From Erysipelothrix inopinata (GTDB lineage: Bacteria; Bacillota_I; Bacilli_A; Erysipelotrichales; Erysipelotrichaceae), in NCBI RefSeq assembly GCF_014396165.1, contig NZ_CP060715.1, positions 60,001 to 92,000 on the forward strand: DNA of 32,000 bases, written 5' to 3'. The notes under the pieces were generated by a model, which was given only the letters and a program-made list of their open reading frames with translations, had not been told where the DNA came from and did not search any database. The position numbers and the translations under genes were made by a program. Shown here piece by piece: positions 3,160 through 28,378 of this stretch. Every line of letters starts with the position of its first letter. The stretch's first letter is position 1.

Positions 3160-3184
3160 AAAAAAGCCGTGTATCTACACGGCC
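3160..3184 (-). terminator. attenuator terminator of leader 1, directly upstream of the paralog-1 RBS
   Basis: The RNA is GGCCGUGU-AGAU-ACACGGC followed by UUUUUUG. It lies about 30 nt upstream of the ATG at 3130. Confidence 0.8.
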
Positions 3185-3270
3185 AAAATAAACGTTTAGA
3201 AGATTTAGTAATGAGCCTATGTAGATTTTAGTAACACAAAACAGCTAATATCCACTCGGCTATTAACTGA

Positions 3271-3336
3271 TTAACTAAAATAATAATAGTAGCTCCATTG
3301 TTGGGCTTGTGTATTAAGTAATATGTTGTCTTTCAT
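3271..3336 (-). CDS. candidate leader peptide L1, MKDNILLNTQAQQWSYYYYFS (21 aa), Tyr-rich regulatory codon run
   Basis: Hand translation of the minus strand gives ATG AAA GAC AAC ATA TTA CTT AAT ACA CAA GCC CAA CAA TGG AGC TAC TAT TAT TAT TTT AGT TAA. An SD-like AAGGAAAGG..GGUG lies upstream. The ORF sits between the promoter at 3361-3389 and the terminator at 3160-3184. Confidence 0.6.
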   Translation of the reverse strand: MKDNILLNTQAQQWSYYYYFS

Positions 3337-3360
3337 ATGAAGCACCAACCTTTCCTTGAT

Positions 3361-3389
3361 AGAATAACAGACATTTTCATAGTTATCAA
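3361..3389 (-). promoter_or_regulatory. sigma-A promoter of leader 1 / paralog-1 operon
   Basis: -35 TTGATA (3389-3384), 17-nt spacer, -10 TATTCT (3366-3361) on the minus strand. Confidence 0.55.
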
Positions 3390-7511: not shown

Positions 7512-8468
7512 CTATTCAACTATTTTCGCATTCTTATAGTTATTTGTGTCTATATCGAATTTTTCTGCGACTAATTTATTGAGAATTAGCGTGGTTTCAC
7601 GACTTTGATAGACACCAAGCGACTCCGGTTGAACATTCTCGATAAGGATTTTTTCAATCATTTCTCCCGCTTTTTTTCCCAATTGTTCATAACTTAACGA
7701 TTCAGCCGCAAGAATTCCTTCTTTCATTTGGCCATCTTCTGATGCAAAGACAGGAATACTTTGTTTCGTAGCCAGTTCAGTGATTGTCGATGTTGCAGAT
7801 ACGACCATATTATCTGTAATGTTGTAGATTGCATCCACCCGACCTAACATCTGAGTAACTACTGTTGATACATCTTGAATGTTAGAAATTCCCACTACAT
7901 CAAGTTCTACACCAACACTTGGTGCAATTTTTTGTAAAGCATCAATTTGAACTGTAGAATTAATCTCACCCGTATTATAGATTATTCCAACTTTTTTTGC
8001 CTCAGGCAAAATATTTTTGACAACCATTAATTGTTGATCAGCAGGTGCTAAATCACTCACACCCGTAACATTACTTCCAGGATGATTTAAAGAATCAACC
8101 AACTGTGCCTCAACAGGATCGGTTACTGCATTAAAAATCACAGGAATGCTTGTACCTTCTGTAGCATAATATGCAGATTGTGCTGCGTTAGTTCCAATAG
8201 CATAGATTAAATCATACTTGTCCGATACCATACTTTGCGCAATTAAATCCGCATCTGCAACATTTCCTTGAGCATTCTTAACCACAAACTCTGCATCCTT
8301 ACCGTATTTTTCTTGCCAATATTCTTGTGCTCCTCTAACTGCCGCATCAAGTGAGGGATGTTCCGCAATCTGAATCACACCTATCCGATACTTACTTTCG
8401 TTGCTTGCCTGAGCCGTACATCCTGCAAGTAATACCACACTCATCATCATTACTAGTATTTTTTTCAT
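7512..8468 (-). CDS. ABC transporter substrate-binding lipoprotein, paralog 3 (orphan)
   Basis: Start moved to the ATG at 8468 (MKKILVMMMSVVLLAGC), which follows RBS GAAGGAGAG. The longer track ORF runs through the terminator. Lipobox LAGC is present, and the protein is paralogous to the two other binding proteins. Confidence 0.85.
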   Translation of the reverse strand: MKKILVMMMSVVLLAGCTAQASNESKYRIGVIQIAEHPSLDAAVRGAQEYWQEKYGKDAEFVVKNAQGNVADADLIAQSMVSDKYDLIYAIGTNAAQSAYYATEGTSIPVIFNAVTDPVEAQLVDSLNHPGSNVTGVSDLAPADQQLMVVKNILPEAKKVGIIYNTGEINSTVQIDALQKIAPSVGVELDVVGISNIQDVSTVVTQMLGRVDAIYNITDNMVVSATSTITELATKQSIPVFASEDGQMKEGILAAESLSYEQLGKKAGEMIEKILIENVQPESLGVYQSRETTLILNKLVAEKFDIDTNNYKNAKIVE

Positions 8469-28278: not shown

Positions 28279-28367
28279 TGGAGGATTGGCCGAGCGGCTT
28301 AAGGCACCATCTTGGAAAGGTGGCGAAGTGTTATGCTTCCGAGAGTTCGAATCTCTTGTCCTCCGCC
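28279..28367 (+). tRNA. tRNA-Ser (anticodon GGA), CCA encoded
   Basis: Acceptor stem GGAGGAT/GTCCTCC and anticodon stem CCATC/GGTGG. The anticodon loop TTGGAAA gives anticodon GGA. There is a long variable arm, a T-arm GAGTTCGAATCTC, and a terminal GCCA. An extended -10 TGTGTATAAT lies about 15 nt upstream. Confidence 0.9.
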
Positions 28368-28378
28368 ATATGAAATTA

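Follow-up and report, generated by a model that had tools for sequence, protein, structure and literature searches.

Results

Leader 1 and the operon behind it

The window analyzed here is a stretch of DNA of 32,000 nucleotides (nt) from Erysipelothrix inopinata, and all coordinates are positions in it. Our subject is leader 1, a candidate transcription attenuator upstream of the genes of an ATP-binding cassette (ABC) transporter. The leader and the operon are on the minus strand, in the order SBP2 (4375-3422), leader 1 (3389-3160), SBP1 (3130-2177), permease (2177-1284) and ATPase (1281-496). The three genes that leader 1 would regulate are SBP1, coding for a substrate-binding lipoprotein of family PF04392 (Pfam, 5.7e-63), followed by genes for an ABC permease (PF02653) and an ATPase (PF00005), also assigned by Pfam. 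Their reading frames are contiguous or overlapping.

The SBP1 protein is 100% identical to an E. inopinata protein at NCBI. Structural homologues of SBP1 in the PDB are 6HNI (5.5e-60), the closest, which is CD0873, then 3LKV (2.5e-47) and 3LFT (1.6e-45). Both the Pfam match and the homology to ligand-bound structures place SBP1 among the PF04392 aromatic-amino-acid binding proteins of the CD0873 / VC_1101 / SP1069 type.

Elements of the leader RNA

A consensus scan found the promoter of the leader transcript at 3389-3361, with the -35 box TTGATA (3389-3384), a 17-nt spacer and the extended -10 box TGtTATTCT (3369-3361) that ends 24 nt upstream of the ATG. A Shine-Dalgarno (SD) region, AAGGAAAGG, reads at 3357-3349, and its spacing would fit pairing with the 3' end of the 16S ribosomal RNA (rRNA). 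The open reading frame (ORF) that follows, MKDNILLNTQAQQWSYYYYFS, occupies positions 3336-3271 (ATG at 3336-3334, TAA at 3273-3271) and has 21 sense codons and the stop codon UAA. We propose that a leader RNA of ~190 nt, with the SD and the 21-codon ORF at its 5' end, is made from this dedicated promoter. The last eight sense codons are UGG AGC UAC UAU UAU UAU UUU AGU; the putative regulatory codons are the four consecutive tyrosine codons UAC UAU UAU UAU (3291-3280), and UUU (Phe, 3279-3277) comes immediately after them.

The first hairpin, H1 (3269-3242), starts 1 nt past the stop codon. Its 5' arm, segment A (CAGUUAAUA, 3269-3261), pairs with the 3' arm UAUUAGCUG (3250-3242) in 9 base pairs (bp), one of them U-G, around a loop of 10 nt (GCCGAGUGGA, 3260-3251); the folding energy is -9.9 kcal/mol (z = -4.2). 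A U-tract follows right after H1 (3241-3238), with T34 and T35 invariant in alignment A2 described below, and in the paralogous leader 3 the combination of H1 and U-tract was flagged as terminator-like. Such a combination may act as a hairpin-dependent pause of RNA polymerase that lets the ribosome catch up; the pause-hairpin concept in the trp and his leaders is reviewed in PMC8632103.

The loop and 3' arm of H1 make up segment B (AGCCGAGUGGAUAUUAG, 3261-3245), which is also the 5' strand of the alternative hairpin H2. The core of H2 joins GAUAUUAG (3252-3245) to CUAAAAUC (3231-3224) with one A/A mismatch. The full helix is formed by 3261-3245 with 3231-3214 (AGCC..GUGGAU.UUAG : CUAA.AUCUAC...GGCU), has a computed energy of -12.9 kcal/mol (hairpin) or -15.5 kcal/mol (duplex), and buries the entire 5' arm of the antiterminator.

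Segment C (ACUAAAAUCUACAUAGGCUC, 3232-3213) is the pivot of the leader, with three alternative partners: segment 0, segment B (in H2) and, via 3226-3215, segment D. Segment D (GCCGUGUAGAU, 3183-3173) serves twice, as the antiterminator's 3' strand and as the terminator's 5' arm. The antiterminator pairs AUCUACAU-A-GGC (3226-3215) with GCC-GUGUAGAU (3183-3173) in 11 bp plus one bulged A (-12.7 kcal/mol, z = -3.3). The intrinsic terminator (3184-3160) consists of the hairpin GGCCGUGU-AGAU-ACACGGCU (3184-3165) and a U-run to 3160, with the energy of -11.9 kcal/mol (z = -4.6). The two alternative folds are near balance: -22.6 kcal/mol for H1 with the antiterminator and -24.8 kcal/mol for H2 with the terminator.

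The third partner of the pivot appears in the terminator-state minimum free energy (MFE) structure of the ribosome-free leader. It is segment 0, the 3' part of the ORF (GAGC..CUAU....AUUUUAGU, 3295-3274), which pairs with segment C (3232-3213) around the nested H1 by 16 bp and -12.6 kcal/mol. We observed in ribosome-free folding of leaders that segment 0 spans the aromatic codons together with two or three codons ahead of them.

A first-pass annotation, made from the letters of the window, had already described leader 1 as a tyrosine leader-peptide attenuator, and most of its drawing agrees with what we found. The ORF at 3336-3271 with UGG ahead of the Tyr run is in the sequence as described, and both the antiterminator (3226-3215 with the 5' arm of the terminator) and the terminator itself were placed correctly. 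The folding energies of the competing structures, from -9.9 to -12.9 kcal/mol each, are far from negligible. For H1, the 9 bp, the single U-G pair and the distance from the stop codon were right, but the string written out for it was short by one A, so that the loop had 9 nt instead of 10. The pairing given for H2 (3252-3245 with 3231-3224) is real but is merely the core of the longer helix. As a whole the tyrosine attenuator reading is supported, but it was incomplete, lacking the longer H2, the pairing of segment 0 with segment C and the leader's own promoter.

One more complementarity was noticed within leader 1. The ORF codons for QQWS (CAACAAUGGAGCU; 3306-3294) are complementary to 3168-3156, that is, to the 3' arm and U-tail of the terminator and the downstream GUUG. 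This pairing is present in the full-length MFE structure, with a duplex energy of -13.7 kcal/mol (z = -3.5). In the AQQxS subfamily of Erysipelothrix it is strong, reaching -19.3 kcal/mol in E. tonsillarum, but is not family-wide, as z < -2 was seen in just 10 out of 36 leaders.

Folding in the presence of a ribosome

The ribosome was modelled as a 28-nt footprint that reached 15 nt upstream and 12 nt downstream of the first nucleotide in the A site. With the footprint masked, partition functions were computed with ViennaRNA for the terminator 5' arm allowed to pair either downstream only or upstream only; a positive value of the free-energy difference (ddG) means that the terminator is favoured.

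For leader 1 in the absence of a ribosome, ddG was +3.7 kcal/mol. Placing the A site on Tyr codons 1 to 4 gave +1.4, -0.7, +0.4 and +1.0 kcal/mol, and placing it on the Phe, Ser and stop codons gave +4.6, +4.8 and +5.4 kcal/mol. Thus, the dip is confined to the four Tyr codons, and there is a rise of 4-6 kcal/mol at the last codons and the stop. In the model, therefore, two earlier suggestions hold: a ribosome at the stop codon, masking H1, favours the terminator, and a stall in the Tyr run, leaving H1 in place, shifts ddG by 4-6 kcal/mol toward the antiterminator.

The same pattern was observed for the family of homologous leaders introduced below. The mean ddG of 4.0 kcal/mol for ribosome-free leaders fell to 1.8-2.1 with the A site on codons -7 to -4 and reached 4.7-5.6 on the last two codons and the stop, where the terminator was favoured in at least 34 of the 36 leaders. 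The valley in ddG coincides with the positions that hold Tyr or Phe codons in 56-97% of leaders.

These values are consistent with a switch of three states. With no ribosome on the 3' part of the ORF, segment 0 would pair with C around H1, D would pair with the downstream segment E, and transcription would terminate; an untranslated leader would terminate because segment 0 pairs C. When Tyr-tRNA (transfer RNA) is scarce, a ribosome would wait with its A site on one of the four Tyr codons. Its footprint would hide segment 0 and end just short of H1, and H1 would keep B locked; the free C could then pair with D as D emerges, forming the antiterminator, and the polymerase would read into the operon genes. 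The stall would be needed on the Tyr codons because the Tyr-codon region itself pairs with the 5' arm of the antiterminator. When Tyr-tRNA is plentiful, a ribosome that has arrived at the last codons or the stop would unwind the 5' arm of H1, and the released B would capture C in H2, upon which the terminator would form.

An earlier version of the model, in which the leader was ON by default without translation, was dropped given the pairing of segment 0 with C and the preference for the terminator without a ribosome in the footprint model.

Homologous leaders

An alignment of SBP1 orthologues was searched against one genome per species, which gave 79 loci. In these we found 36 distinct leaders of the same build upstream of binding-protein genes in Erysipelothrix and other Erysipelotrichaceae. 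Two more leaders, one Phe and one Tyr, are on an unrelated metagenome contig that was reached via an SBP2 homologue.

Each of the 36 leaders has the SD motif AGAAAGGyTGGG, an ATG, 15-24 codons and an aromatic run at the C-terminal end, so that the expected recurrence of Tyr codon runs is borne out by runs of Tyr, Tyr/Phe or Phe. The N-terminal sequence and the length of the ORF drift, and UAU and UAC swap synonymously between orthologues. The runs include YYYYF, NYYYF, YYY, FYYYF, FYYYYY, YYYYY, FYYFYY and YYFYFYF, with FFFFF in a paralogous class. SBP1-like genes have Tyr runs (QQWSYYYYFS, QQMSNYYYFR, QQLSYYYS, QQWSFYYYFS, GSFYYYYYRSRS, SQSYYYYYVKT, GSFYYFYYR), mixed Tyr/Phe runs occur in deeper branches, for example, AYYFYFYFR, and SBP3-like genes have pure Phe runs (SFFFFFR, SFFFNFR, SFFFFFT). 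The frequency of Tyr or Phe at codons -7 to -2 was 0.56, 0.89, 0.97, 0.83, 0.78 and 0.78. Conservation does not extend to the Trp codon, at whose position orthologues have W, M, L or G.

A promoter matching the consensus in at least 8 of 12 positions was present within 75 nt 5' of the ATG in 30 of 36 leaders. The spacer was 17 nt long in 36/36 and TG preceded the -10 box in 34/36; the box mostly ends 22-25 nt ahead of the ATG.

The start of H1 lies at -4 to +3 nt relative to the stop codon's end in every one of the 36 leaders, and H2 (-12 to -21 kcal/mol), the antiterminator (-12 to -19 kcal/mol) and the terminator can be drawn in all of them. The arm sequences diverge widely among species yet remain complementary. 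On segment C, the footprints of H2 and the antiterminator overlap by 11-23 nt (mostly 11-17) in 36/36 leaders.

Covariation was assessed in alignment A2, built on sequence only, from which the variable spacer was removed; the controls were pairing partners slid by 1-3 columns and 500 shuffles. In the ON fold (H1 and antiterminator) 79.6% of cells were paired, compared to 32-44% in the slid controls, and in the OFF fold (H2 and terminator) 75.4% compared to 31-47%. For either fold, the observed covariation score was reached by none of the 500 shuffles. The proposed chain of mutually exclusive structures is thus upheld, as both folds covary. Taken separately, H1 had 83% of cells paired with compensatory changes in 4 of 9 pairs, and the terminator had 91% of cells paired with compensatory changes in 7 of 8 pairs. 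RNAalifold run on the family predicted the terminator helix only, as expected of a multi-state RNA.

Alignment-free swap controls gave a similar picture. For the antiterminator, cognate arms had a mean of -15.8 kcal/mol compared to -9.7 for non-cognate ones; for H2 these means were -17.0 and -11.7 kcal/mol, so that the cognate advantage was about 5-6 kcal/mol in both cases. Segment 0:C pairing was judged by alignment-free swapping and shuffling, the MAFFT alignment A4 that includes the ORF tail being too ragged at segment C. Cognate pairs had -14.7 kcal/mol and non-cognate pairs -8.7, the cognate partner was the best in 11 of 17 representatives, and z < -2 against shuffled ORF tails was observed in 28 of 36 leaders. 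The 0:C pairing accounts for the fact that GAGCU ahead of the Tyr run and GGCUC behind the antiterminator arm are conserved at the level of nucleotides. Similarly, the motif GGAUAUU in segment B is nearly invariant across the family because this sequence has a double pairing duty.

A second copy of the H2 3'-arm motif, pointed out in the first-pass annotation, does exist in the pre-terminator spacer: CUAAAUC (3207-3201) in leader 1 and UUAAAUCAAU (8530-8520) in leader 3. It lacks conservation and functional support, being present only in E. inopinata and its nearest relative, and its duplex with B is no better than that of shuffled sequence in 35 of 36 leaders; therefore, it was rejected as an alternative partner.

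We also ran a composition-blind scan that asked for an SD, an ATG, 8-32 codons, a hairpin at the stop and a terminator. In the 32-kb window it found exactly three elements, each upstream of a PF04392 binding-protein gene. In the related loci, 46 of 49 matches were leaders of the Tyr, Phe or Trp type.

In three loci from gut Erysipelotrichaceae (Dielma, Clostridiales VE202-08 and Longicatena) no leader-peptide attenuator and no T-box was seen upstream of the homologous binding-protein genes.

Paralogous leaders in the window

Besides SBP1, the window has two more PF04392 genes on the minus strand, SBP2, a substrate-binding lipoprotein gene (4375-3422), and SBP3 (~8450-7512). An L-A/T-G-C lipobox is present in all three proteins.

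The Phe-type leader, leader 3, is located upstream of SBP3 (8687-8494, minus) and has the promoter TTGCAA-17-TGaTATTAT. Its ORF, MIQTIQMQLSFFFIFRN (8636-8583), ends in a UAG stop that H1 (8584-8556) overlaps; the antiterminator pairs UCAAUGUGGCU perfectly with AGCCACAUUGA, and a terminator follows at 8510-8494. Here thermodynamics alone produced both states: with H1 free, the leader folded into H1 and the antiterminator, and with the 13 stop-proximal nt masked it folded into H2 and the terminator.

The longest mechanically called ORF for SBP3 begins at GTG 8534, within the Phe leader and upstream of the leader's terminator. Translation of SBP3 probably begins instead at the ATG near 8450, with a lipoprotein signal and its lipobox (MMMSVVLLAGC).

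The Trp-type leader, upstream of SBP2 (4545-4381, minus), has the ORF MMINKRWSNRRS (4510-4472), a hairpin and a strong terminator (4404-4381). In its homologues one Trp is retained, with S/Y/H-N/S-x-R/L-I-K/E after it (e.g., RWSNKRIEY, TWSNSRIK and IWYNSLIE). This leader does not fold like those of the Tyr/Phe family: the codons past Trp pair with a downstream UCGGUUGUUGCU-like segment, and we identified no clear antiterminator in the Trp-type leader. As the H1/H2 fold is not shared, this leader was not pooled with the Tyr/Phe family. The single conserved Trp and the conserved peptide tail might reflect a different mode of sensing.

No terminator was found in the stretch between the end of SBP2 and the leader-1 promoter (3422-3390, minus), and transcripts let through by the Trp-type leader probably run on into the Tyr attenuator. 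Behind the Tyr leader are the sole permease and ATPase genes seen in the window, on which the Phe- and Trp-type binding proteins would depend as well.

Evidence on the identity of the signal

A T-box motif preceded 58 of the 119 homologous binding-protein genes that the fetched loci contain; most of these 58 are from Tissierellia and other Clostridia. In 11 loci with homologous genes that were scanned with Rfam models, there were 19 T-boxes with scores of 105-129 bits. The apparent specifiers are UAC (Tyr) or UUC (Phe). Tandem gene pairs, one with a Tyr (UAC) and one with a Phe (UUC) T-box, occur in eight loci of Tissierellia and relatives, and they mirror the Tyr and Phe leaders of the E. inopinata window. 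The two paralogous leaders in the window likewise corroborate an amino-acid signal.

The closest structural relative of SBP1, CD0873 of C. difficile, was crystallised with tyrosine, and its thermal stability was shifted by tyrosine only (PMC6816091). The other two relatives, 3LKV and 3LFT, hold Phe and Trp. The specificity of CD0873 is said to rest on Glu263 and Tyr279 (PMC6816091), which correspond to E241 and Y257 of SBP1.

Erysipelothrix rhusiopathiae retains the full synthesis of just seven amino acids, with no aromatic one among them (PMC9769512); therefore, uptake must be regulated. The T-boxes, the CD0873 structure and this auxotrophy are independent of each other, and all three, judged through homologues and relatives, appear to agree on tyrosine as the signal.

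In a metagenome-assembled genome of Clostridiaceae (locus L084, 1775-2191) the homologous operon is preceded by a HutP-family gene, and no T-box or leader-peptide match was found there. HutP is an RNA-binding antiterminator protein. Here the same transporter may be regulated in yet a third way.

Other features of the window

A further leader with a terminator (7469-7369, minus; terminator at 7393-7372) was seen upstream of a gene of the xanthine/uracil permease family (7342-6047, PF00860). It had a weak match to the PyrR-binding site RF00515 (25.9 bits compared to the gathering score of 54, E = 0.55) and may be a divergent PyrR attenuator of a uracil permease. A 16S rRNA gene is truncated by the start of the window, with only its 5' end inside (1-280, minus), and a near-consensus promoter TTGACA-17-TATTAT with an upstream TG is at 432-404 (minus). 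A gene for tRNA-Ser(GGA) is located at 28280-28368 (plus).

Discussion

A probable tyrosine attenuator and points against it

Taken together, the results make it highly probable that leader 1 is a ribosome-mediated transcription attenuator that reports the supply of charged tRNA-Tyr and controls a tyrosine-type ABC uptake operon. Leader 1 shows the features of the attenuator class: an ORF with SD and ATG near the 5' end, a conserved cluster of cognate codons, an intrinsic terminator that separates the ORF from the regulated gene, mutually exclusive structures that covary and, in the footprint model, a ribosome whose position alters the available structure. We infer from these data that the ORF is translated, as well as the direction of regulation, the kinetics of folding and tyrosine as the amino acid both sensed and transported.

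Several observations weigh against this conclusion. In the footprint model the preference for the antiterminator in the stalled state is small, with ddG close to 0 for leader 1 and the family mean still ~2 kcal/mol on the side of the terminator. Since the ON state is nearly iso-energetic with the OFF state, the switch must rely on the order of co-transcriptional folding, which is the weakest link of the argument. When the 5' arm of H1 is unobstructed, the energies favour H2 (-12.9 kcal/mol) over H1 (-9.9 kcal/mol), and therefore H1 must act as a kinetic lock. In Bacillus subtilis transcription and translation are said to be functionally uncoupled, as reportedly described by Johnson et al. in Nature in 2020; such uncoupling would disfavour the device unless the Erysipelotrichaceae differ or the pause at H1 and the U-tract synchronises the two processes. 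The leader also has Trp and Phe codons, and a mixed aromatic response is possible. Finally, equivalents of E241 and Y257 are also found in SBP2, SBP3 and homologues under Phe T-boxes; the two-residue rule does not discriminate within the clade, and we dropped it as a predictor of ligand specificity, the residues being present in every regulatory class.

Alternative explanations

The same parts could follow another logic, in which the leader senses a general slow-down of translation or all three aromatic amino acids, or in which stalling leads to termination. The ORF does hold one Trp and one Phe codon next to its four Tyr codons, Tyr and Phe are mixed in many homologues (e.g., YYFYFYF), the operon has the only permease and ATPase of the window, which the Phe- and Trp-type binding proteins need too, and thermodynamics alone gives no clear ON state. 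However, the Trp codon varies among orthologues (W, M, L or G), and at the Phe codon, position -2, the preference for the terminator has already returned. The sign of the ddG shift, the uptake function and the behaviour of T-boxes on homologous genes all argue for induction by starvation, and termination triggered by starvation would be maladaptive for an auxotroph. Therefore, we consider such a logic unlikely.

A riboswitch or a protein-binding attenuator, similar to the trpB motif, could instead sense an aromatic amino acid or a regulator directly, with the mini-ORF being incidental. The idea is suggested by the region 3258-3155, which weakly resembles the Rfam trpB motif RF04312 (24.8 bits, E = 0.2-1.1). 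That motif, made of a right-shoulder antiterminator hairpin and a terminator, is mostly found upstream of an uncharacterised amino-acid-like ABC transporter, and those who described it regard it as a strong candidate for a riboswitch (PMC11109978). The match falls far short of the gathering score of 59, and with no match to RF04312 in any other family member or paralogue we rejected membership. Searched against Rfam, the leader had no family at the gathering threshold, and at the E-value threshold there were only sub-threshold, mostly terminator-driven matches; a metagenome scan with the trpB consensus pattern found no instances, and Rfam scans of 13 further transporter loci found T-boxes and no trpB motif. 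The near-invariant GGAUAUU of segment B, which a ligand or protein site might explain, already follows from its double pairing duty. Conversely, direct sensing leaves unexplained the conserved SD and ATG and the in-frame stop abutting H1 in 36/36 leaders, the Tyr or Phe identity of the run that tracks the paralogue and parallels the T-box specifiers, the synonymous UAU/UAC changes and the coincidence of the ddG dip with the aromatic codons. Direct sensing is, in our view, very improbable.

That the mini-ORF encodes a functional small protein or a TnaC-type nascent-peptide sensor of free tyrosine, the hairpins being an ordinary 5' untranslated region and terminator, is hardly credible: the C-terminal aromatic motif is conserved at the protein level and the Trp-type paralogues retain W-S-N-x-R-I-K/E with a single Trp, but conservation is limited to the codon run, since peptide length and N-terminal sequence drift, nucleotides in the run and in the codons ahead of it covary with segment C, so that the constraint is at the RNA level, the geometry from stop to H1 is fixed, and no peptide homologue is needed to account for any observation.

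Significance

Leader 1 is real as a finding, conserved and mechanistically coherent, and the proposed mechanism itself is classical. What is new is the amino acid sensed, the class of regulated genes, the lineage and the architecture of a pivot with three partners. Most likely, the leader does in Erysipelothrix what T-box RNAs do for homologous genes elsewhere. Leader-peptide attenuation is known almost only from biosynthetic operons of Proteobacteria and Actinobacteria, and examples from Firmicutes are rare.

A broader reading would join three claims, that a modular family of leader peptides replaced T-boxes, that transcription and translation are coupled in this part of Bacillota, and that the trpB motif is the same device; we regard this joint reading as tentative and rather doubtful. 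If it were true, the Erysipelotrichaceae would have swapped the T-boxes of aromatic-uptake genes for home-grown modular attenuators whose specificity is reprogrammed by a swap of the codon run (Tyr, Phe, mixed or the Trp variant) while the hairpin relay co-evolves. It would also mean tight coupling, possibly enforced by H1 and the U-tract, in a Bacillota lineage where coupling is thought weak, and, by extension, the orphan trpB riboswitch candidate could be a ribosome-read device instead.

The window has three leaders with different codon runs in one 9-kb stretch; the Tyr- and Phe-type leaders share the fold, and the Trp-type leader keeps similar parts with another fold. With Tyr and Phe T-boxes on the homologues in sister lineages, this would be a natural case of an exchange of RNA mechanisms for the same signal. 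The codon runs would offer a specificity label (Tyr, Phe and probably Trp) for unannotated binding proteins of an auxotrophic genus of animal pathogens. The leaders might further serve as a compact, reprogrammable amino-acid sensor and as a natural system for testing whether ribosomes keep up with RNA polymerase in this branch of Bacillota.

Comparison with known systems

In the literature we found no description of Tyr-codon leaders, of leader peptides on PF04392/trpXYZ-type or other amino-acid uptake transporters, or of Erysipelothrix examples. The nearest systems are of four kinds.

T-boxes (RF00230) serve the same gene family, read the same signal, the charging of a specific tRNA, and have the same output, antitermination at an intrinsic terminator. 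In Streptococcus suis, for example, a T-box is upstream of trpXYZ, a homologous PF04392 transporter (PMC9382623), and the specifiers of such T-boxes are Tyr (UAC), Phe (UUC) or Trp. The difference is that a T-box binds the uncharged tRNA directly via Stem I and the T-box sequence, whereas leader 1 would read charging through the ribosome. Within the window no T-box was matched by Rfam at the gathering or E-value thresholds, and leader 1 has neither Stem I nor the T-box sequence. The trpB motif (RF04312; Narunsky et al. 2024, PMC11109978) shares with leader 1 the occurrence in Firmicutes, a hairpin with a right-shoulder antiterminator followed by a terminator, and a place upstream of amino-acid-like ABC transporters; H2 and the terminator of leader 1 align to it weakly. 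The authors of the motif could not exclude a classic attenuator (PMC11109978).

Leader peptides have been described in Gram-positive lineages as well: a His leader peptide at the Bacillus hisS paralogue/hisZ (PMC2965389), an attenuator with a Leu-rich peptide at ilv of S. aureus (PMC5794164), and the uORF uORFC-13-1 with Phe codons at aroF of Acholeplasma (PMC8632094). In common with leader 1, a leader peptide takes the place of a T-box in these systems, and in the Acholeplasma case aromatic amino acids are concerned in both. The Acholeplasma lineage is related to the Erysipelotrichia. Still, these leaders control biosynthetic or synthetase genes, none of them is Tyr-specific or controls a transporter, and, unlike the leaders of Erysipelothrix, they do not form a paralogous set with swapped codon runs.

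The E. coli leaders trpL, pheL/pheA and hisL (Trp_leader, Phe_leader and His_leader) are the closest to leader 1 in logic. A short 5' ORF with a run of the sensed codons, mutually exclusive hairpins ending in an intrinsic terminator and regulatory codons inside the first pairing segment are shared features; so are, on our model, the preference for the terminator with a ribosome at the stop codon and the termination of an untranslated leader. The relay of several hairpins is similar to that of the his leader. Leader 1 differs from the classical leaders in having no sequence or Rfam similarity to them, in its tyrosine codons, in its host, a member of Bacillota, and in its target, an uptake ABC transporter and not a biosynthetic operon. 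A further difference is that two separate anti-antiterminators act on one pivot, namely the 3' part of the ORF and, in the nested hairpin, the loop plus 3' arm.

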